Shown here: positions 7,439 through 20,090 of the stretch, in pieces
Layout: each line of letters begins with the position of its first letter
Numbering within the stretch: position 1 is the stretch's first letter
Origin: an uncultured Thiomicrospira sp.
GTDB lineage: Bacteria > Pseudomonadota > Gammaproteobacteria > CAKMZV01
NCBI GenBank assembly: GCA_965195345.1
Contig: OZ239628.1
Coordinates: forward strand, 640,001-704,000
Direction of reading: 5' to 3'
Length of the DNA stretch: 64,000 bases
Program-made: the position numbers and the translations under genes
The notes under the pieces: generated by a model
Seen by the model: the letters and a program-made list of their open reading frames with translations, nothing else
Told to the model about the DNA's origin: nothing
The model's database searches: none

Positions 7439-8872
7439 TCATTCGTAGCGCTGATCTGTCAGTGTATTTAAGAATGCAACCAGTGCATCTATTTGAGTAT
7501 CCGTTAAATTTCTCATGCCTAATCGCGTGTTGTCTACTGAAGCGGGAAATTCTGGGTTACCCCAAGGCTGTCCTGTTTCTGGATTATTTGGAATTCGATT
7601 GCGAGCAGCAGTGCCAGCATTCACATAAAATTGTATTACTGTACGCAAGCTTACAAACACACCGTTGTGCATGAACGGAGCAGTCACAGCTACATTTCGT
7701 AATGAAGGTGTTTTGAATCGTCCATCCAGATTCACATTGTTTAAAGTAGCGCCAACGCCTCTATCGGAAATGGCAGCAGGGTTAGCATTAGTTAGGGTGC
7801 TGTTGGTGGGTAAGCCAATATTGCGGTAGTTAAAGTTGGAGAAAGCTTGTTGTGGCGTGTTGGCATTGCTTTGCTCTGCAATATGACAACGTCTACAGCT
7901 GGTGGCATTTCCAAAAAATAAATTTCTTCCTTCTATCTCTTGCGCTGTAAGGGTTGCAGCTCCAGTTAAAGAGCGATCAAACTTAGAATCAAATGTGGAA
8001 AATTGCGTACTTTGACGCTCAAAATCCGCTATGACGGATGTTACTGCATTTAATGCTGTTAGTGTGCTGTCTAGGACAGTACTACCAAAATGTTCCCTAA
8101 GGTTGTTTACATAAATACTGTTTTCGTTGATTCGCGCAACAATCTCTTGCACATTAGGTAATTGCAATTCCACACTATTTGTAAAAGGCCCTGCTGCTTG
8201 GGCTTCTAAAGTGGCTGAACGACCATCCCAAAATTGTCCACCTTGAGGGTTATTGCCATTATTACTGAAAGCTGGAATTAGGTTTGCGTAATTTATGGAT
8301 GGACTGTTTCGTGTGCCTAAAGCTACACCATCTTGACCTATTGACACGGCTTTACCGATCACAGAATCGGTTCGAGTGTCAGAAAAAGCATGGTTTGCAT
8401 CGTGACAAGTAGCGCATGACTGCGTGCGATCGCGTGAGAAATTCACATCATTGAAAATCATTTCTCCTAAAACTGCACGAGATAGGATTAGGCTTGAGGA
8501 GGAGTTAACCGTAACATTGATAGTGTCAGTGCTGGTTATATTTCCATCGCTAACAACGAGCTGTATGTTGTAAGAACCAGATATATTTGGAGTAAACGAG
8601 GTATTTAGTGAAGTTGCATTATTCAGATTTACTACGCTTCCAGTAGGAGTGGAAATGAATGCCCAAGAATAAGTAAGTGTATCGCCATCAGGATCAGTGC
8701 TTAATGAGGCTGACAAAGTGATGGTTGCGCCCACGGTGGAACTTTGATCAAGACCTGCATTTGCAACAGGGGATTGGTTGCCGGTAGAAGTATTAGGCTG
8801 TTCGTTGCCTGTGTTGTTACCACAACCTGTTAAAAATATACAAATAAGTGTTGCTAAACTAAAATGACGCAT
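7439..8872 (-). CDS. Lipoprotein di-haem cytochrome c peroxidase (CcP/MauG family) with N-terminal PKD/Ig-like domain
   Basis: Lipobox FLTGC; PVANAG..DPDGDTLTYSW; haem motifs CATCH and CRRCH; RNSPS, QFWDGR, FKTPSLRNVAVTAPFMHNG. Confidence 0.88.
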   Translation of the reverse strand: MRHFSLATLICIFLTGCGNNTGNEQPNTSTGNQSPVANAGLDQSSTVGATITLSASLSTDPDGDTLTYSWAFISTPTGSVVNLNNATSLNTSFTPNISGSYNIQLVVSDGNITSTDTINVTVNSSSSLILSRAVLGEMIFNDVNFSRDRTQSCATCHDANHAFSDTRTDSVIGKAVSIGQDGVALGTRNSPSINYANLIPAFSNNGNNPQGGQFWDGRSATLEAQAAGPFTNSVELQLPNVQEIVARINENSIYVNNLREHFGSTVLDSTLTALNAVTSVIADFERQSTQFSTFDSKFDRSLTGAATLTAQEIEGRNLFFGNATSCRRCHIAEQSNANTPQQAFSNFNYRNIGLPTNSTLTNANPAAISDRGVGATLNNVNLDGRFKTPSLRNVAVTAPFMHNGVFVSLRTVIQFYVNAGTAARNRIPNNPETGQPWGNPEFPASVDNTRLGMRNLTDTQIDALVAFLNTLTDQRYE

Positions 8873-10776: not shown

Positions 10777-13437
10777 ATGAATGAATTTATAGATAAAGAC
10801 CCTCTGGGCACGAAAGAATGGCAAGAAGCATTTGAAGCAGTTCTTGAGTTTGAAGGGACAGAAAAAGGACACCACTTATTGCAGAAGTTGATTGATCAGG
10901 CTCGAATGAAAGGGCTTGATCTGCCATACAGTGCCACCACAGATTATTTAAATACTATTCCTGTGTCACAGCAGGCTTATGCACCCTCAGGGATGGATAT
11001 TGAACGTAAGCTTCGTTCAATCGTTCGTTGGAATGCAGTCGCTATGGTGGTGAAAACGAATCGAAAATATTCGGAATTAGGTGGGCATCTTGCCAGTTAC
11101 TCTTCCAGCGCTACACTCTATGAAGTGGGCTTCAACCATTTCTACAAAGGACACGATCGAAAGAATTCCGATGGCGGTGATATGGTCTTTTTTCAAGGGC
11201 ACTCGTCTCCAGGGATATACTCTAGAGCGTATCTTGAAAGTCGTCTGAGTGAAGAAGATATCACTAATTTTCGCCAAGAAGTAGATGGCAAAGGTGTGTC
11301 GTCGTATCCTCATCCATGGTTGATGCCCGGATTTTGGGAATTTCCTACAGTTTCGATGGGACTTGGTCCAATCATGGCTATCTATCAAGCTCGATTTATG
11401 AAATACATGGAGGATAGAGGTTTAATAAGAGAAGAACAGCGCAACGTTTGGGCATACCTTGGTGATGGAGAAATGGATGAACCCGAGTCTTTGGGTGCTA
11501 TTCAATTAGCGTCAAGAGAAAGCCTTGGAAATTTGATTTTTGTTATCAACTGTAACTTACAACGTTTGGACGGTCCTGTCCGTGGTAACGGGAAAATAAT
11601 TCAAGAACTTGAAGGCAATTTTCGCGGTGCAGGATGGAATGTTATAAAAGTTATCTGGGGTTCAGATTGGGATGCTTTACTTGAGCGCGATAAAAGTGGC
11701 ATGTTGGTGAAACGCATGATGGAAGTGGTTGATGGAGATTATCAAACTTATAAAGCAAAAGGAGGGGCTTACATACGGGAACATTTTTTCGGCAAGTACC
11801 CTGAAACTTTGGACTTAGTTAAGGATTTATCAGACGATGATATATATCGTTTAAACAGAGGAGGGCATGATCCTCGCAAAATATATGCAGCCTACAAACG
11901 CGCCGTAGAAACAACGGATCAGCCAACTGTTATTCTGGCTAAAACTATTAAAGGGTACGGGATGAAGGGATCGGCTGAGGGCGCAAATACTGCGCATCAG
12001 ACTAAGAAACTTGATGAAGGTGCTTTGCGAATATTCCGAGATCGCTTCAGTATTCCTATATCCAATGAAATGCTCAACGAACTACCATTCTATAAGCCAT
12101 CAGAAAACTCTGAAGAAATGAAGTATCTGCATGAGCGGCGCAAAGAGCTTGGTGGCGTCTTACCCAATCGCAGGATACTTAAAGAAAAAATAGATATGCC
12201 TGCTTTTTCTGTATTCAAGTCGCTCTGTGAAGATACGGGCGAGCGTGAAATGTCTACTACCATGGTCTTTGTTCGATTTTTATCCATCGCTTTGCGTGAT
12301 AAAAATATAAAGGATCGTCTCGTTCCTATTGTGCCAGATGAAGCGCGTACTTTTGGTATGGAAGGATTATTTAGACAGCTTGGAATCTATGCTCCAGAGG
12401 GTCAAAAGTATACCCCTGAAGATTCTGACCAAATGATGTGGTACAAAGAAGCGGCAAATGGACAAATATTGGAAGAGGGAATTAATGAAGCAGGGGCAAT
12501 GTGTTCATGGATTGCCGCAGCCACCTCGTATGTAAATCATGCCAAAGTTATGATTCCTTTCTACATTTACTACTCAATGTTCGGGTATCAGCGAGTGGGC
12601 GATTTAGTTTGGGCTGCTGGAGATATGCAGGCTAAAGGTTTCTTAATGGGAGGTACGGCTGGAAGGACAACGCTCGCAGGCGAAGGTTTACAGCATCAAG
12701 ATGGACATCACATGCTAATGTTTGGCAATGTGCCAAACTGTAGGAGTTATGATCCTACGTTCTCCTATGAATTAGTTGTTATTATGCAAGATGGGTTGGA
12801 GCGGATGTATACGCGGCATGAAAATTGCTTTTATTACTTAGCTGTAATGAATGAAAACTATTCACATCCTGCTATGCCTAAAGATTGTGCCGAAGGGATT
12901 ATTAAAGGAATGTATTCATTCAAAAAAGGAGCAAAAAGTGCAAAGCGCGTTCAACTTATAGGGTCGGGTACTATATTTCGTGAAGCAATTGCTGCTGCAG
13001 AACTGTTGAAAAAGGATTTTGCTGTTGAATCAGATTTGTGGAGCGCACCAAGTTTTAATGAACTTCGTAAAGATGGATACGAATGTGAGCGTATTAATCG
13101 TTTGCACCCTGATAAGAAGCCTTTGGTGCCTTATGTGACGCAATGTTTTTCTGGTAGTGAAGGACCGGTTATTGCTGCAACGGATTACGTTCGTCAATAT
13201 GCTGACCAAATTCGCTCATGGATTCCAAACTCCTATACCGTATTGGGCACAGATGGCTACGGACGCTCAGATACGAGGAAAAAACTACGTCATTTCTTTG
13301 AAGTTGATCGCTATTGGATTGTGGTTGCGGCTCTAAAGGCATTGATGGATGAAGGCAGAGTGGATGCTAAAGTAGTGAAGAGCGCGATTAAAAAGTACAA
13401 AATTGATAGTGATAAGCCTAACCCATTGAACGTTTGA
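10777..13437 (+). CDS. aceE: Pyruvate dehydrogenase E1 (homodimeric type)
   Basis: SSYPHP, FPTVSMGLGP, ThDP motif GDGEMDEPES...NCN, GEGLQHQDG, LGTDGYGRSD. Confidence 0.98.
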   Translation: MNEFIDKDPLGTKEWQEAFEAVLEFEGTEKGHHLLQKLIDQARMKGLDLPYSATTDYLNTIPVSQQAYAPSGMDIERKLRSIVRWNAVAMVVKTNRKYSELGGHLASYSSSATLYEVGFNHFYKGHDRKNSDGGDMVFFQGHSSPGIYSRAYLESRLSEEDITNFRQEVDGKGVSSYPHPWLMPGFWEFPTVSMGLGPIMAIYQARFMKYMEDRGLIREEQRNVWAYLGDGEMDEPESLGAIQLASRESLGNLIFVINCNLQRLDGPVRGNGKIIQELEGNFRGAGWNVIKVIWGSDWDALLERDKSGMLVKRMMEVVDGDYQTYKAKGGAYIREHFFGKYPETLDLVKDLSDDDIYRLNRGGHDPRKIYAAYKRAVETTDQPTVILAKTIKGYGMKGSAEGANTAHQTKKLDEGALRIFRDRFSIPISNEMLNELPFYKPSENSEEMKYLHERRKELGGVLPNRRILKEKIDMPAFSVFKSLCEDTGEREMSTTMVFVRFLSIALRDKNIKDRLVPIVPDEARTFGMEGLFRQLGIYAPEGQKYTPEDSDQMMWYKEAANGQILEEGINEAGAMCSWIAAATSYVNHAKVMIPFYIYYSMFGYQRVGDLVWAAGDMQAKGFLMGGTAGRTTLAGEGLQHQDGHHMLMFGNVPNCRSYDPTFSYELVVIMQDGLERMYTRHENCFYYLAVMNENYSHPAMPKDCAEGIIKGMYSFKKGAKSAKRVQLIGSGTIFREAIAAAELLKKDFAVESDLWSAPSFNELRKDGYECERINRLHPDKKPLVPYVTQCFSGSEGPVIAATDYVRQYADQIRSWIPNSYTVLGTDGYGRSDTRKKLRHFFEVDRYWIVVAALKALMDEGRVDAKVVKSAIKKYKIDSDKPNPLNV

Positions 13438-13447
13438 GGACAAAGTA

Positions 13448-14785
13448 ATGGCAATTCAAGAAATTAAAATTCCAGATATAGGTGACTTCAATGATGTGGA
13501 AATTATTGAAGTTTTAATTCAAGTAGGGGATTCAGTCAATAAAGACGATTCTTTAATAACATTAGAGAGCGATAAAGCCAGCATGGAAATTCCATCGCCT
13601 GTTAGCGGTGTTATCAAGGAAATGACCGTTAAGCTTGGAGATCGTGTTTCTAAAGGCACATTGATAGCACAGATTGAAGCGAGTGAAGAGAGTGCTGCTG
13701 CTTCCTCTAAAGAAAGCGTGCCTGAAATGTCTGCGGAAGGAGAAGACCCAAAAGCGGATGTTGCTAAGGAAGCGCCTCAGTTGCAGAGTGCAGAGCAAAA
13801 TAATTCAGCGCCTTTATTAACAACAACCAATGCGGTTGAAGTTGAAACGGGTACGCATTCAAATGCAGTTGTCCCTGACAATAGACCGGCGACTTCAGCC
13901 CTATATCACGCCAGTCCTAAAGTTCGTCGTCTTGCTTCATCATTAGGCGTGGATTTGGCCAATCCCAAAGGAACTGGTCCGAACGGACGCATCAAAGAAC
14001 AAGATGTGCGCGATTATGTGAAATCTGCTTTGAGTGGGCAGAGTCAATCAGGGATGGGCATTCCGACTATTCCTGAAATAGATTTTTCCCAATTTGGAGA
14101 AATTGAGGAAGTACAACTATCGCGTATTAAAAAACTATCAGGGAAACACTTAAAATCTTGCTGGCTAAACGTACCACACGTAACCCAATGCGTTGATGCT
14201 GATATTACTGATTTAGAAGCATTTAGACAAACAATGAAAGTAACAGCCGAAAAAGCTGGTGTGCGTTTGACACCTTTAGCTATTATTATTAAGGCAGTCG
14301 CGGCGGCATTAAAAGAAAATCCTATTCTCAATGCCTCTCTCAAAGGGGACAATCTTATTATGAAAAAATACTTTCATATAGGTATTGCGGTGGATACGCC
14401 TAATGGATTGGTTGTGCCAGTTATCCGAAATGTAGACAGCAAAGGAGTGCTTGAGTTAGCTGGTGAAATGGCTGATGTTAGCGTAAGAGCCCGTGATGGG
14501 AAACTTACTCCTACTGATTTGAGCGGAGCAGGGTTTTCTGTTTCCAGTTTAGGAGGTATTGGAGGAAGTTACTTTACGCCTATTGTCAATGCCCCTGAAG
14601 TTGGTATTCTTGGAGTAGGTCGTTCTTCAATGCAGCCCGTTTGGGATGGTGCCTCTTTTCAACCACGACTTATGTTGCCATTGTCTATTTCCTATGACCA
14701 TCGCGTGGTTGACGGTGCACAAGGAGCACGATTTGCCGTATCGATGAGCAAGTATTTGAGCGATATACGCACTCTCGTTTTATAA
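13448..14785 (+). CDS. aceF: Pyruvate dehydrogenase E2 dihydrolipoyl acetyltransferase, single lipoyl domain
   Basis: Lipoyl ESDKASME, E3-binding ASPKVRRLA...GTGPNGRI, catalytic DHRVVDG. Confidence 0.97.
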   Translation: MAIQEIKIPDIGDFNDVEIIEVLIQVGDSVNKDDSLITLESDKASMEIPSPVSGVIKEMTVKLGDRVSKGTLIAQIEASEESAAASSKESVPEMSAEGEDPKADVAKEAPQLQSAEQNNSAPLLTTTNAVEVETGTHSNAVVPDNRPATSALYHASPKVRRLASSLGVDLANPKGTGPNGRIKEQDVRDYVKSALSGQSQSGMGIPTIPEIDFSQFGEIEEVQLSRIKKLSGKHLKSCWLNVPHVTQCVDADITDLEAFRQTMKVTAEKAGVRLTPLAIIIKAVAAALKENPILNASLKGDNLIMKKYFHIGIAVDTPNGLVVPVIRNVDSKGVLELAGEMADVSVRARDGKLTPTDLSGAGFSVSSLGGIGGSYFTPIVNAPEVGILGVGRSSMQPVWDGASFQPRLMLPLSISYDHRVVDGAQGARFAVSMSKYLSDIRTLVL

Positions 14786-14818
14786 GCATTAGAAATTGAA
14801 ATCAATTGAGGTGAATTA

Positions 14819-16582
14819 GTGAGCATTGATAAGATATATATTCCAGATATCGGTGACTTTAGCGAAGTTGAAATTATTGAAGTTTTGATCGCTGAAGGAG
14901 ACAAAGTTGAAGAAGGACAGTCACTTATCACATTAGAAAGTGATAAAGCCAGTATGGAAATCCCGACACCAAAGGAAGGGGTTGTTAAAAGTTTAAAGGT
15001 AAAACTTGGTGATAAAGTGTCGAAAGATAGTTTGATTTTGGAATTAGAAACTGCCGATGTTGAAAGTAAAGGGGGTGAGGGTGCGGATTTAAAAGATTCT
15101 TCTACTGCTAAACAAGAAACTAATCAGACAGCTGAAGTCGATACTGAAAGTAATTTAGAACGTGCGGATAAATCCGATAATGTTTACGATGTTGCTGTAT
15201 TGGGAAGCGGACCTGGTGGTTATACGGCTGCTTTTCGTGCGGCGGATCTTGGATTAAAAGTTGCTTTGATTGAGCGTTTTCCTATCATTGGTGGAGTGTG
15301 CTTGAATGTCGGCTGTATACCTTCTAAAGCGTTGTTACATATGGCACAAGTGGTGTGTGAAGCCAAAGAAATGTCTGAGAATGGTGTTGACTTTGGAAAA
15401 CCAAAGTTGAGTTTTGATCAAATGCGAGGCTTTAAAAATAAAGTAATCAATAAACTTACCGGTGGTTTACAAGCGCTTGCAAAGCAACGTAAAGTTGATG
15501 TTATCGAGGGTTATGGCAAGTTCATAGATGCTCATACCATTGTTGTTGAGGGAGAGAAAAATAAAGAAATTCATTTTAAAAATGCAATTGTGGCAGCTGG
15601 TTCACGAGTACAAAAAATGGACGTTTATCCGTGGCAGGATGAACGCATTATGGATTCCACAGATGCGCTTGAGTTAGAGAAATTCCCCAAAAAACTATTA
15701 GTTGTTGGAGCAGGCATTATTGGTTTAGAGATGGCAACAGTTTATGAGTCGTTTGGCAGTGAAGTAACAGTGACAGTGCGCTCTCAAAATATATTCAGTG
15801 GAGCTGCTGATAAAGACATTGTTAACCCTTTACTCAAACGCATGAAAAAGCGCATTGATCTTCAGTTTGGCACAGTGGTAAAAGCAGTTGATGCCACAGG
15901 TAAGCGTCTTAAAGTGACGCTAGAAGATGACAAAGGTGAGCGCAGCGAAACATTTGATAAGATATTAGTGGCGACTGGACGTATAGCAAATGGGTTGGTT
16001 ATTGATTCAGAAAAGGCTGGAGTGGTAGTTAATGAGAATGGTGTTATTCCAGTTGATCATCAAATGAGGACTAATGTTGCTCATATTTTTGCTATAGGCG
16101 ATATTGTTCCTGGTCCTATGTTAGCGCATAAAGCAACTCACGAAGGGAAAGTAGCTGCTGAAGTTATAGCTGGTCTTAAATCTGGATTCAATGCAATGAC
16201 TATACCGTCAGTAGCATATACTAATCCTGAAGTAGCTTGGATGGGTAAGACAGAAACAGAATGCAAAAAAGAAGGAATTGAATACACCAAGGGTGCGTTT
16301 CCTTGGGCTGCCAGTGGGCGCAGTTTGAGTATTAATAATACAGATGGATTGACGAAGCTACTGTTCGATAAAAAAACAGGTCGTCTGCTTGGAGCAGGCA
16401 TAGTTGGCCCTAATGCGGGAGAGCTAATTGCTGAGGCGGTGGTGTCGATGGAAATGGGTGCAACTGCAGAGGATATTGGGCTTAGCATTCATCCACATCC
16501 CACACTTTCTGAAACGCTTTGCTTTGCTGCTGAAATGGCTGAAGGGACTATTACAGATTTGATGCCTCCTAGAAAACGTTGA
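14819..16582 (+). CDS. lpdA: Dihydrolipoyl dehydrogenase E3 with N-terminal lipoyl domain; atypical nucleotide-binding fingerprint
   Basis: Lipoyl ESDKASME, GSGPGGY, GGVCLNVGCIPSK, HPHPTLSE; GAGIIG...VTVTVRS replaces the usual GGGIIG...VVE. Confidence 0.96.
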   Translation: MSIDKIYIPDIGDFSEVEIIEVLIAEGDKVEEGQSLITLESDKASMEIPTPKEGVVKSLKVKLGDKVSKDSLILELETADVESKGGEGADLKDSSTAKQETNQTAEVDTESNLERADKSDNVYDVAVLGSGPGGYTAAFRAADLGLKVALIERFPIIGGVCLNVGCIPSKALLHMAQVVCEAKEMSENGVDFGKPKLSFDQMRGFKNKVINKLTGGLQALAKQRKVDVIEGYGKFIDAHTIVVEGEKNKEIHFKNAIVAAGSRVQKMDVYPWQDERIMDSTDALELEKFPKKLLVVGAGIIGLEMATVYESFGSEVTVTVRSQNIFSGAADKDIVNPLLKRMKKRIDLQFGTVVKAVDATGKRLKVTLEDDKGERSETFDKILVATGRIANGLVIDSEKAGVVVNENGVIPVDHQMRTNVAHIFAIGDIVPGPMLAHKATHEGKVAAEVIAGLKSGFNAMTIPSVAYTNPEVAWMGKTETECKKEGIEYTKGAFPWAASGRSLSINNTDGLTKLLFDKKTGRLLGAGIVGPNAGELIAEAVVSMEMGATAEDIGLSIHPHPTLSETLCFAAEMAEGTITDLMPPRKR

Positions 16583-16784: not shown

Positions 16785-19700
16785 ATGTCAACGTCATTTG
16801 ATCCCATCCACACACCGTTAATAGCAAGAGGTTTTAATCTAGTTGAAGCCAGCGCAGGCAGTGGTAAAACTTTCTCTATTGCGTTTATTGCAATGCGTTT
16901 GATCGTTGAAAAAGCAGTTCCTTTAGAAAAAATTCTAATAACTACGTTTACACGATTGGCGGCGGCAGAAATGACAGAGCGTATTTTTAGTATGCTGAAA
17001 AAAGCCGATGCATTGTATTTAAAGGCAACACCCCCTGAAGGAGATGATCTTGTTGAACAGTGGGTGGCAAATCACTGGAATGATGAATTTCGTTTTCGGA
17101 TTACAAGTGGTCTTACTCAATTTAACAAGTTGGCAATTCAAACAAATGACAGCTTGTTTCAAAAATTAACAAATCAACAAGCACTTGAGTTGAACGCCCC
17201 AATCGAAGCGGGTGAACAGATTGATGAAAGGACAATATTTTATCGACAGCTACGTACTTTTTGGTTAGAAGCATTATCGGATTGTTCAAAGACATTAAAA
17301 CCACGATTTTTAAACCGTTTTCCATTACCTGAAAATCTGAATAGGTTTGTTAAGGTTGAGCATCTACGAGGCGTAAAAATTCCATCAGTGGCTCTAAAAA
17401 AGGAATTAACAAAATTTACAGACGCTATTGATGCAGTTGAAAGCTTAGCACAGACTAAGATGGCACAGTTTATTAATATTTTTGATGATGCTTTAAAAGA
17501 TGGTTGTATTAAAAAGCCTTCTATAGGTGGTGTGCATTGGTCTTTGGGGCTTTTAAAAGAATCACCTGTTGATGCAATACTAAGTTTAGAAAACGATTTG
17601 GAAAATTATTTTATGAGTAAAGTTCCTGTCAAATGCAAAGATGGAATTTGCAGTAAGCTACAAACGTTTGAGCCATTATTTTATGCTTGCAATAAGTTAG
17701 TTGCCCAAGAGGGGAAATATTTTCAAGCATTTTTATATCATGCACAAACGTTAGTCAACCAAAGGACATTGGCAGAAATTGAAGCGCATTCCGGTTGGAG
17801 TTATGACGGTATTTTGTACCAATTAGAAGCGAGTGTTTTAAAGGGGTCCGTGCACGGGACTTTCGATGCAGTATTGGTTGATGAATTTCAAGATACCAAT
17901 CATGCGCAGTGGAACGTATTGTGTTCTTTGCTTTCTGATACAGGATTTGGATATTTAATTGGCGATCCCAAACAAGCAATCTATCGTTTTCGAAAAGCCG
18001 ATTTAAATACGTATTTTAGTGCTGCTCAAGTGTGCAAGAATCAATATACGCTTGATTTTAACTGGCGTTCAACGCCTATTTTAGTGAATGCAGTTAATTG
18101 TCTGTTTAATAGAGAAAATGTTTTTCTTGAAGAAAAAATGTATTTTTCACCAGCACAGACCGCATTAGCAGAAGCTGATAACAGCGTCGCTCAATTCGTC
18201 ACACTGGATAGTGCAGACGAAACAGATACAGCTCAAGCTTGTGTGAATAAGATACATGATGTTATCAAAGATGGATTTTCCCCCAATCAGATTATGGTAT
18301 TAGTGAATACTAATGCACAGGCGGAAATGATTGAACACTTATTGTTAGATGATGGTGTGCCGGCAACCATTAGAAAGATGAGTAAGGACACGAATTTTTT
18401 GGTTAATTGTGTCAAATATTTCGTAGAAGCATTGAAAAAACCTCAAGATGAGGCATTACAAAAACGGTATTTGCTGGCATTTTTAAATTTAGATATAAAT
18501 ACAGCGTTGAATCACCCAAATATTTCTGAGACATTACAATCGCTTAGAGATAAGTGGTTTTATATTGGTCCGCTTGGGATTTTAAAACACATCGTCCTAA
18601 ATAGCAAAATACGGAGTAATTGGCAGGAAGTCGGTCAAAAATCTGCTTTTTCTGGTTTGCTACTTGTGATGGAAAAGCTGCAGGAATTCTGGTCGGAATA
18701 TCCTTCCTTTAAGTATGTCGATGCCATTGTTGAGGAATGGGAATATGCTATTGAGAAAGAAAGCATAGTATTAACCGAATTGCCGAATGCTGTTCGGATA
18801 CTAACCACATTTACGTCTAAAGGCTTGGAGTCTGAAGTTGTGCTTTGTCCGTTCATTCTTACAAAAGAGAGCATATACAAGAACGATCACTTGAATTTGT
18901 TGAAAGAAGGGGGATTTCAATTAGTTTATGGGAGTGATTATGAAGATTGTCAAATTCAAAAAGAAGCCCACTTTGAAGCAGAACTTCGGCGGTTCTTGTA
19001 CGTGGCGCTTACGCGTGCCTCGAAACAACTTTTTGTATTCACAAACAAAAAGTTGTGCGTACTAAGAAGAATGTTGTACTCCCCTGTTAAATCAAATAAG
19101 CCAGCAGAACAAAAAAAAGAATTATTCACTAAACTTCAATTAGATGCAGAGCAGCTTGGTTGGACGGTATCCGAAGGGGATTACCTTAGCAAAAAGTCTA
19201 AACAGGAAGATGAAAATCAGGAAGTCAGAGTCGATACACTATCGAGAAGAAGAGCTTTGATTGGTATAAGCAGTTTCTCAAGGCTTTTAAAACAGAAAAG
19301 TGTCATTGAAATGGTGGAAGATCGCTTGGGTGAAGTAGAGGAATCTCATACAGATTATACTGAAATAAAACTCACCCCAGGTGCGGCTAGCGGAGAAGCG
19401 GTGCATCAATGTTTGCAAAAATTATTAGAAAATAAATCCCTGCAGAAAGAAGTTTCACAAACCCAATCCCTTCATCCATTTTGGGCGGATCAACTGAAAG
19501 CACAAGGGTTATCGGATGAGGCGAGCGAAGAATTATACGTGTGCGTGATGGCAGCATTGAATAATAAAATTGAACCTCTTGGAAACAAAACATTGGGACA
19601 CTTCGAAACATCGGCTATTCAATGTGAAATGAAATTTAATATGCATTTAAAGCACAGCCTTGAAGTGGCAATGTTGAATGACTTGCTAAAAAAGCATGCG

Positions 19701-20090
19701 CATTTGAAAAAACAATGGATGCTTAGTGAAATGCCTAAACAGGTAATCCCTTCAGGTATGTTCACAGGGTTTATCGATCTAACGCTGTGCAATGATGAAC
19801 GTTATTGGATTATTGACTATAAGAGTAACTACTTAGAAAATTACTCACCTGCTAATATTCAGCAAGCGATGGAAAAGCATGGTTACGGTTGGCAAGCAAG
19901 TTTTTATATGCTCGCTCTGCATCGATATTTATCGAGGTTGCTACCCAACTACTCATTGTATGATCAGTTGGGTGGTGCACTTTATTTGTTTGTACGAGGC
20001 ATGGTAGATCCAAGTAGTACGCAAAATGGGATTTGTCAATTAGGACCATCGCTTGAATGGATTGAAATTCTTGATGAGATCATAGAGTAA
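16785..20090 (+). CDS. recB: RecB-like SF1 helicase-nuclease
   Basis: EASAGSGKT, TFTRLAAAEM, VDEFQDT, IGDPKQAIYRFR, NWRS, YVALTRA; C-terminal nuclease GEAVH..GFIDL..IDYKSN..Y..Q..Y, GGALYLFVRG. Confidence 0.85.
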   Translation: MSTSFDPIHTPLIARGFNLVEASAGSGKTFSIAFIAMRLIVEKAVPLEKILITTFTRLAAAEMTERIFSMLKKADALYLKATPPEGDDLVEQWVANHWNDEFRFRITSGLTQFNKLAIQTNDSLFQKLTNQQALELNAPIEAGEQIDERTIFYRQLRTFWLEALSDCSKTLKPRFLNRFPLPENLNRFVKVEHLRGVKIPSVALKKELTKFTDAIDAVESLAQTKMAQFINIFDDALKDGCIKKPSIGGVHWSLGLLKESPVDAILSLENDLENYFMSKVPVKCKDGICSKLQTFEPLFYACNKLVAQEGKYFQAFLYHAQTLVNQRTLAEIEAHSGWSYDGILYQLEASVLKGSVHGTFDAVLVDEFQDTNHAQWNVLCSLLSDTGFGYLIGDPKQAIYRFRKADLNTYFSAAQVCKNQYTLDFNWRSTPILVNAVNCLFNRENVFLEEKMYFSPAQTALAEADNSVAQFVTLDSADETDTAQACVNKIHDVIKDGFSPNQIMVLVNTNAQAEMIEHLLLDDGVPATIRKMSKDTNFLVNCVKYFVEALKKPQDEALQKRYLLAFLNLDINTALNHPNISETLQSLRDKWFYIGPLGILKHIVLNSKIRSNWQEVGQKSAFSGLLLVMEKLQEFWSEYPSFKYVDAIVEEWEYAIEKESIVLTELPNAVRILTTFTSKGLESEVVLCPFILTKESIYKNDHLNLLKEGGFQLVYGSDYEDCQIQKEAHFEAELRRFLYVALTRASKQLFVFTNKKLCVLRRMLYSPVKSNKPAEQKKELFTKLQLDAEQLGWTVSEGDYLSKKSKQEDENQEVRVDTLSRRRALIGISSFSRLLKQKSVIEMVEDRLGEVEESHTDYTEIKLTPGAASGEAVHQCLQKLLENKSLQKEVSQTQSLHPFWADQLKAQGLSDEASEELYVCVMAALNNKIEPLGNKTLGHFETSAIQCEMKFNMHLKHSLEVAMLNDLLKKHAHLKKQWMLSEMPKQVIPSGMFTGFIDLTLCNDERYWIIDYKSNYLENYSPANIQQAMEKHGYGWQASFYMLALHRYLSRLLPNYSLYDQLGGALYLFVRGMVDPSSTQNGICQLGPSLEWIEILDEIIE

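Follow-up and report, generated by a model that had tools for sequence, protein, structure and literature searches.

Can a natural pyruvate dehydrogenase (PDH) complex pass its electrons to NADP+? In the textbook view, the pyruvate and 2-oxoglutarate dehydrogenase (OGDH) complexes are strictly NAD+-linked, and to our knowledge versions that use NADP are known only through protein engineering and laboratory evolution. The question is raised by lpdA, a gene at 14819-16582 (+ strand) of a 64,000-nucleotide stretch of DNA, hereafter called the window, from an uncultured Thiomicrospira sp. (contig OZ239628.1, positions 640,001 to 704,000). The gene encodes a lipoyl-domain-fused dihydrolipoyl dehydrogenase (E3) of 587 amino acids, and a first interpretation made from the letters of the window (the sequence-only reading) had proposed that its cofactor site is of the NADP type. 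Based on the analyses described here, we think it fairly likely that LpdA takes NADP+ about as readily as NAD+ or more so, i.e., with a kcat/KM ratio (NADP+ over NAD+) of at least about 0.5. The complex can then probably make NADPH, which is not known for a natural PDH complex.

The cofactor-specificity site of LpdA

NAD-specific E3 enzymes carry a carboxylate at the end of the second beta-strand (beta-2) of the dinucleotide fold, where it binds the hydroxyls of the adenosine ribose and keeps a 2'-phosphate away. The corresponding region of LpdA (residues 297-333, bases 15707-15817) reads GAGIIGLEMATVYESFGSEVTVTVRSQNIFSGAADKD. Translation confirmed that the codons GTG CGC TCT at 15776-15784 (+ strand) specify V320-R321-S322, which by alignment replace the Glu-Met/Leu-x of NAD-specific E3s. 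V320 had been placed by the sequence-only reading exactly at the specificity Glu, with a one-residue insertion after it, and both points were borne out when LpdA was aligned with E. coli E3 (PDB 4jdr) using phmmer. There were no gaps between the GxGxxG motif and the site; V320, R321, S322, and Q323 fell on the Glu, Met, Phe, and Asp of E. coli VVEMFDQVI; and a one-residue gap opened in the E. coli enzyme just before PAADKD, i.e., LpdA has an insertion there. Glu was present at the site in all four of the aligned, solved NAD-type E3s (E. coli, N. gonorrhoeae, and two Pseudomonas species). In an AlphaFold2 model of LpdA built on 33 aligned sequences, DSSP delineated a predicted beta-alpha-beta NAD(P)-binding unit (15692-15802, + strand) made up of a strand at 292-296, GAGIIG at 297-302, a helix at 300-311, a strand at 315-320, and a remodelled loop at 321-328. 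Since strand 315-320 of the model stops at V320, where the predicted local distance difference test (pLDDT) score is at least 90, V320 is, on this model, the residue that classically closes beta-2 of the dinucleotide fold.

The loop following this residue also departs from the usual form. Among the 33 aligned sequences, the ordinary pattern was Glu-[Leu/Met/Phe]-x-[Asp]-x-[Leu/Ile]-[Ile/Met]-Pro-Gly, whereas LpdA and the relatives that share its Arg (the Arg clade, see below) had [Val/Ile/Arg]-Arg-[Ser/Gly]-x-x-[Ile/Leu/Met]-Phe-[Ser/Gly]-[Gly/Ala] and one extra residue. The loop of LpdA has a single basic residue instead of two acidic ones, it has lost the Pro and gained one residue, and it carries Gln for an acidic residue three places after V320.

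Work on E. coli Lpd shows what this position can do, as E205 of that enzyme is the Glu matching V320 of LpdA. According to one study (PMC8406311), wild-type Lpd had a kcat/KM of 830 s-1 mM-1 with NAD+ and was inactive with NADP+. Lpd E205G (12.8 s-1 mM-1 with NAD+, 7.8 with NADP+) or E205A (5.4 and 6.5 s-1 mM-1, respectively) arose repeatedly when an NADPH auxotroph of E. coli was evolved, and the mutants overall spanned 5.4-12.8 s-1 mM-1 with NAD+ and 6.5-10.6 s-1 mM-1 with NADP+ (PMC8406311). Such single Glu changes let PDH and OGDH supply NADPH in vivo, while E205V together with four further changes gave a 100-fold preference for NADP+ (PMC8406311). The five engineered changes appear as E205V, M206R, F207K, D208H, and P212R in a table of a review (PMC5817062), which agrees with the statement in the sequence-only reading that Glu-to-Val and Met-to-Arg (numbered there E203V and M204R) are among them; in the same table, the opposite changes listed for glutathione reductase of E. 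coli are V197E, R198M, K199F, H200D, and R204P, plus A179G and A183G. The engineered E3 is attributed to Bocanegra 1993 (as cited in PMC5817062 and PMC8406311).

All five of these positions are altered in LpdA. The first two changes of the engineered enzyme, Val and Arg, are natural in LpdA and conserved in its clade, whereas Ser, Gln, and Ser/Gly plus an insertion are found where engineered Lpd has Lys, His, and Arg. LpdA therefore has the combination expected of an NADP(H) pocket, namely a non-acidic residue at the end of beta-2 with Arg as the next residue (V320, R321), and E. coli glutathione reductase (V197-R198-K199-H200...R204) likewise has a hydrophobic beta-2 end and then Arg. The Ala of LEMA in LpdA presumably occupies the place of G189A, which we take to be the second Gly-to-Ala change of the engineered E3; since this Ala is also found in Glu-type relatives, it gives no information on the cofactor.

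LpdA is the E3 of a pyruvate dehydrogenase complex

LpdA is the E3 of the aceE-aceF-lpdA PDH complex. It has the equivalog score, the CxxxxC and HPxxxE motifs, the fold, and the gene linkage to E1 and E2 that belong to an E3. LpdA passed the TIGR01350 equivalog cut-off (486 bits, cut-off 408.8), while the MerA, SthA, and glutathione reductase models each scored below their own cut-offs (for the last, 273 bits against 480). A phmmer search matched LpdA over its full length (residues 5-586, E = 1e-166) to the lipoyl-fused E3 of N. gonorrhoeae (5u25), and its E3 part aligned with E. coli Lpd (4jdr; E = 4.5e-160) at ~55% identity. The AlphaFold2 model (mean pLDDT 88.7) predicted a lipoyl beta domain, a disordered linker, and a complete E3, and the best PDB matches of this model in Foldseek were E. 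coli E3 structures (9h2i, 4jq9, and 4jdr; template modelling (TM) score 0.97, root-mean-square deviation 1.2). The genes follow one another as aceE, aceF, and lpdA on the + strand with intergenic gaps of 10 and 33 bases.

The sequence-only reading had reported lpdA after aceE-aceF, with both catalytic motifs and the lipoyl domain intact, and this proved correct. The N-terminal lipoyl domain (residues 1 to ~80; 14819-15058, + strand) is defined by beta strands at residues 2-78 of the model and carries the lipoyl-lysine motif DKA at residues 42-44; PF00364 was also assigned in the precomputed annotation of a protein identical to LpdA (P0004). Linker residues 81-112 are predicted to be disordered (pLDDT <50). 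The redox-active disulfide CLNVGC (C161-C166; 15299-15316, + strand) was read from the translation, with each residue at least 90% conserved in the 33 sequences, and both members of the C-terminal His-Glu catalytic dyad in HPTLSE (H560 and E565; 16496-16513, + strand) were invariant in the same set. LpdA thus has the lipoyl domain with DKA, the flexible linker, and the complete E3 of the Neisseria P64k type (PDB 1OJT, 1BHY, 5U25), with which it shares the order lipoyl domain-linker-E3. However, the Neisseria site is an ordinary Val-Glu-Met, whereas that of LpdA is Val-Arg-Ser plus an insertion. Similarly, LpdA shares family, fold (TM 0.97), and place in the operon with E. coli Lpd (4JDR), which differs in having no N-terminal lipoyl domain. 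Since the lipoyl fusion is common to at least 100 Glu-type relatives, it is not linked to the change in the pocket. The acidic residue at the end of beta-2 that goes with NAD+ specificity (EC 1.8.1.4) is missing from LpdA, which has Val320 there; this leaves LpdA in the E3 family but questions the NAD+ part of the EC 1.8.1.4 definition.

The variant is real, rare, and shared by a clade

The contig was checked against four public runs from two samples of one study, the deepest of which (depth 33) may be its source. Bases 15776-15784 were identical in contigs from all four runs. The Ser codon is TCT at residue 322 of LpdA and AGC or AGT in two genomes of the same genus (G001 and G002). Since the run contigs agree and related genomes carry the trait with different Ser codons, assembly error was ruled out; and as the trait recurs in independent genomes at 65-70% identity, we see hardly any chance that V-R-S is a sequencing error or a neutral variant of one strain. 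One contig of run X3 (depth 6) has an extra A after 15688, outside the codons of the site, that would shift the lpdA frame; since it is not found in the other three runs, it is probably an assembly error of that contig.

The nearest 120 protein clusters (90% identity) comprised 113 with Glu, the cluster of LpdA itself, and six with x-Arg-Ser/Gly and the insertion. These six, which are 65-69% identical to LpdA, read Ala-Val-Arg-Ser (P0005, P0006, P0007, and P0009), Ala-Ile-Arg-Ser (P0008), or Ala-Arg-Arg-Gly (P0011). A wider sample of 150 representatives at 50% identity, drawn from 1.8 billion proteins, held 132 with Glu, three with Asp, seven with another residue, and eight that the motif pattern did not match, so that 135 of the 142 motif-bearing sequences were acidic at the site. 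Two of the seven non-acidic representatives look frameshifted and one truly has Glu after an insertion; the remaining four (37-43% identity) have Ala, Tyr-Arg-Gly, His-Arg-Ser, and Gly-Arg-Ser. Among loci from other phyla, taken from genome contigs, Glu was present in 66 of 72, no motif was seen in the other six, and no member of the Arg clade was found. V-R-S is, as judged from these sequences, far from a chance state.

To place the variant among its relatives, 40 related genomes were searched for E3 and the 29 best loci were retrieved. Val-Arg-Ser was found in both of the same-genus genomes, Arg-Arg-Gly in a genome from another genus of the family (G004), and an ordinary Val-Glu-Leu in the PDH E3 of a third genus (G003), which is 50% identical to LpdA. 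In a maximum-likelihood tree of 53 rows (IQ-TREE quick, LG+G4), the seven Arg-type rows formed one clade with a Shimodaira-Hasegawa-like approximate likelihood ratio test (SH-aLRT) support of 91, with 98 for the inner five rows, and this clade was sister to all 43 of the Glu-type, PDH-type E3s sampled. On the sequences compared, x-Arg-Ser/Gly defines a monophyletic clade, a point that the sequence-only reading had proposed to check. With the clade adjacent to the root, the direction of the change cannot be read from the tree alone; however, the outgroup and nearly all other E3s have Glu, which makes loss of Glu the parsimonious reading. The aceF-lpd synteny was retained in G001, G002, and G004. 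The clade has 15 specific sites, 11 of them within residues 275-374 (the NAD domain), to which we attach little weight since the insertion was inconsistently aligned and several of the sites fall in a surface beta-meander. Within this NAD-domain meander (LpdA 346-374; 15854-15940), the clade departs from the 113 Glu-type relatives at near-invariant positions, e.g., Gly363 to Arg and Gly370 to Asp, the alignment being uncertain there.

Other apparently independent losses of Glu were seen among gammaproteobacterial E3s in three genomes (G013, G035, and G003). The E3 of G013, which is linked to aceEF and unfused (L111:4995-6467, - strand), reads Leu-Asn-Arg-Gly and is a singleton, the other 105 of 106 new neighboring proteins having Glu. 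The best E3 of G035, linked to sucB (L112 / L120), reads Leu-Ala-Arg-Gly, and in G003 the sucB-linked E3 (L110) reads Phe-His-Pro-Ser while the PDH E3 retains Glu. G004 (Arg-Arg-Gly) and G013 (Asn-Arg-Gly) have a single E3 each, in both cases without the Glu.

A second E3 without the Glu in the same genome

The genome consists of one contig (1.92 Mb, 99.7% complete) and holds three members of this flavoprotein family: lpdA, a sucB-linked lpd (lpd2), and glutathione reductase. The lpd2 gene encodes 481 amino acids in a sucB-lpd-sucC cluster (G000:C1:609372-610781 = L002:1459-2904, - strand) ~30 kb before the window; its product scored 518 bits against TIGR01350 and is 39% identical to LpdA. In a gap-free alignment it has Ile-Lys-Met-Arg against Leu-Glu-Ala-Leu of Pseudomonas LpdG (5u8u), and the same-genus genomes have Tyr-Lys-Ala-Arg-Lys at this site. 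Its nearest 120 clusters comprised 111 with Glu, seven with Lys-x-Arg, one with Asn, and one with Gly, and a FastTree tree implied at least three changes of state. The glutathione reductase (NF004776, 550 bits) reads Ile-Arg-Lys-Asp at the site.

A search of the whole genome with LpdA as query found no Glu-type E3, only lpd2 and the glutathione reductase. A second, Glu-type lpd, for which the sequence-only reading had suggested looking, is therefore absent, and such an enzyme was rejected as a back-up since lpd2 reads Lys-Met-Arg. To judge from the sequences, lpd2 is a second, independent loss of Glu in the same genome, and two paralogues that are only 39% identical have each replaced Glu by a basic solution in one lineage.

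Proposed mechanism and its alternatives

We propose that LpdA re-oxidizes the dihydrolipoyl groups of E2, and probably also those of its own N-terminal lipoyl domain, and that the electrons would pass via the Cys161/Cys166 disulfide and FAD to the nicotinamide cofactor. With Val in place of the carboxylate, the adenosine pocket would stop excluding the 2'-phosphate of NADP+, which R321, and perhaps the S322 hydroxyl, probably attract. PDH would then reduce NADP+ alongside NAD+ or preferentially, and pyruvate oxidation would yield NADPH. The full-text literature searched, outside which most subscription journals lie, held no natural NADP-linked PDH complex or NADP-linked enzyme of the E3 family, and those matches for 'NADP-dependent pyruvate dehydrogenase' that were opened cite the engineered complex. 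Matches from Euglena and ciliate hydrogenosomes we take to be the unrelated pyruvate:NADP+ oxidoreductase. Glycine-fermenting anaerobes reportedly have lipoamide dehydrogenases that use NADP(H) (Dietrichs and Andreesen, ~1990).

Several observations weigh against use of NADP+ by LpdA. As the sequence-only reading had already cautioned, the second Arg, 6-7 residues after the first, is absent from LpdA (Ser327/Gly328), and it is absent from every other member of the clade as well; other Args do occur in clade loops, three residues past the first Arg in P0008 and as Arg-Arg in P0011. The GxGxxA motif is also absent, LpdA keeping GxGxxG (GAGIIG). E. coli glutathione reductase has both the second Arg and GxGxxA, whereas LpdA has neither and is otherwise a true E3. 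Binding of NADP in a pocket does not imply its turnover, and NADP reportedly acts as an inhibitor of an NAD enzyme (PMC4495429). The metabolic context is not favorable either. The genome encodes an NADP-type Icd (NF005425, 764 bits), PntA and PntB, and a MaeB-like open frame of 746 residues, so there is no obvious shortage of NADPH to explain. Complex I (NuoD) is present, NqrA was not found in the genome, and if PDH and OGDH were strictly NADP-linked, respiration would receive little NADH directly. Furthermore, Mdh retains the NAD-type Asp (VVMFDV), and a genome-wide NADP wiring was rejected because not all dehydrogenases of the tricarboxylic acid (TCA) cycle have changed.

The sequence-only reading had suggested that zwf or pntAB might be missing. 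This was half right: zwf and gnd, as well as monomeric isocitrate dehydrogenase, were not found in the 99.7% complete genome, but PntAB is present. Moreover, in a survey of 41 genomes, on which no statistics were done since kin are not independent, zwf was present in 16 and not found in 25, most of which are Glu-type. PntB was present in 25 of the 41 and in all four genomes of the Arg clade; G004, which belongs to that clade, has both zwf and PntB, while G013 (Asn-Arg-Gly) has neither and G035 (Ala-Arg-Gly) has zwf and no PntB. A link of the trait to loss of zwf or pntAB was rejected, as the genes did not track it across the 41 genomes, and the trait therefore does not simply make up for the lack of an oxidative pentose-phosphate pathway. 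Overall, the sequence-based part of the earlier interpretation mostly held, whereas its metabolic rationale was weakened by the presence of PntAB, NADP-Icd, and the MaeB-like enzyme and by the failure of zwf to track the trait; that the complex yields NADPH is suggested by the residues of the pocket.

These same points form the case that LpdA is physiologically still an NAD+ enzyme for which NADP+ is a poor or irrelevant substrate, the loss of Glu being compensated or serving to lower affinity for NAD(H), e.g., to relieve the inhibition by NADH that is typical of E3. LpdA lacks the second Arg and the GxGxxA that true NADPH enzymes have, NADPH is already supplied by PntAB, NADP-Icd, and the MaeB-like enzyme, complex I needs NADH, and the trait is uncorrelated with zwf loss; in addition, the E. 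coli single Glu mutants kept some NAD+ activity, at 5-13 s-1 mM-1 (PMC8406311). However, in the same mutants the loss of the Glu lowered the efficiency with NAD+ by 65- to 150-fold and made NADP+ usable (PMC8406311), the neighboring Arg puts a positive charge where the 2'-phosphate would lie, and Val-Arg and Lys-x-Arg in two paralogues are hard to explain without selection on the phosphate site. On balance, we regard an LpdA that still works physiologically with NAD+ as rather unlikely, although it is the main alternative. Considerably less probable is that LpdA works outside the PDH complex and draws on NADPH to reduce disulfides, lipoyl or other, i.e., as an antioxidant enzyme using its own lipoyl domain. 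An NADPH-like pocket together with that domain would suit such a role, and high cellular NADPH/NADP+ ratios generally favor the reductive direction; however, lpdA lies 33 bases after aceF in a synteny that G001, G002, and G004 share, a search of G004 with lpd2 as query found no other E3, and LpdA scores as a lipoamide dehydrogenase equivalog, all of which make this role very improbable.

If LpdA does use NADP+, strict dependence on it would seem to suit the physiology less well than dual specificity, given complex I, an NAD-type Mdh, and the lack of the second Arg. A more far-reaching possibility, which we consider doubtful at best, is that both PDH (Val-Arg-Ser) and OGDH (Lys-x-Arg) are truly NADP-linked and that aerobic central metabolism is centered on NADPH. 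Were that so, pyruvate oxidation through the TCA cycle would, with NADP-Icd, deliver mostly NADPH, and PntAB would run from NADPH to NAD+ and feed complex I, which would amount to an extra energy-coupling site.

The pyruvate dehydrogenase gene cluster and its surroundings

The E1 gene, aceE (10777-13437, + strand), encodes a homodimeric-type E1 of pyruvate dehydrogenase of 886 amino acids (TIGR00759, 1452 bits, cut-off 860), and aceF (13448-14785, + strand) encodes an E2 acetyltransferase of 445 amino acids. The translation of aceF shows one lipoyl domain, a subunit-binding domain, and a catalytic domain with DHRxxDG. Its match to the three-lipoyl-domain model TIGR01348 was confined to profile positions 155-587, and its score lies just under the cut-off (536 bits, cut-off 552) because it has a single lipoyl domain. 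While AceF has only this one, the E3 brings an additional lipoyl domain of its own. A Shine-Dalgarno-like GAGGTGA (14808-14814) was read directly from the sequence four bases before the GTG start codon of lpdA (14819-14821, + strand).

The cluster is flanked by hflX upstream and a recB-like gene downstream. The latter (16785-20090, + strand) encodes a RecB-like helicase-nuclease of 1101 amino acids that scored 443 bits against a RecB equivalog cut-off of 696; since this is far under the cut-off, the protein is a divergent RecB or an AddA-like protein. Elsewhere in the window, an open reading frame of 477 amino acids (7439-8872, - strand) bears a weak resemblance to di-heme peroxidases of the MbnH/MauG type (162 bits, cut-off 363), and its residues 22-124 match part of a myxosortase-dependent M36 metallopeptidase model.

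Implications

In family, fold, and chemistry LpdA is unremarkable. Its peculiarity lies in the natural, conserved replacement of the residue that governs the choice of cofactor, which is seen in both of the E3 paralogues. If the clade is truly NADP-linked, the cofactor output of central complexes would be evolvable in the wild, and both flux models and genome-scale reconstructions would have to be revised for such bacteria. Metabolic engineering would, in that case, gain a ready-made, evolution-polished E3 that produces NADPH.

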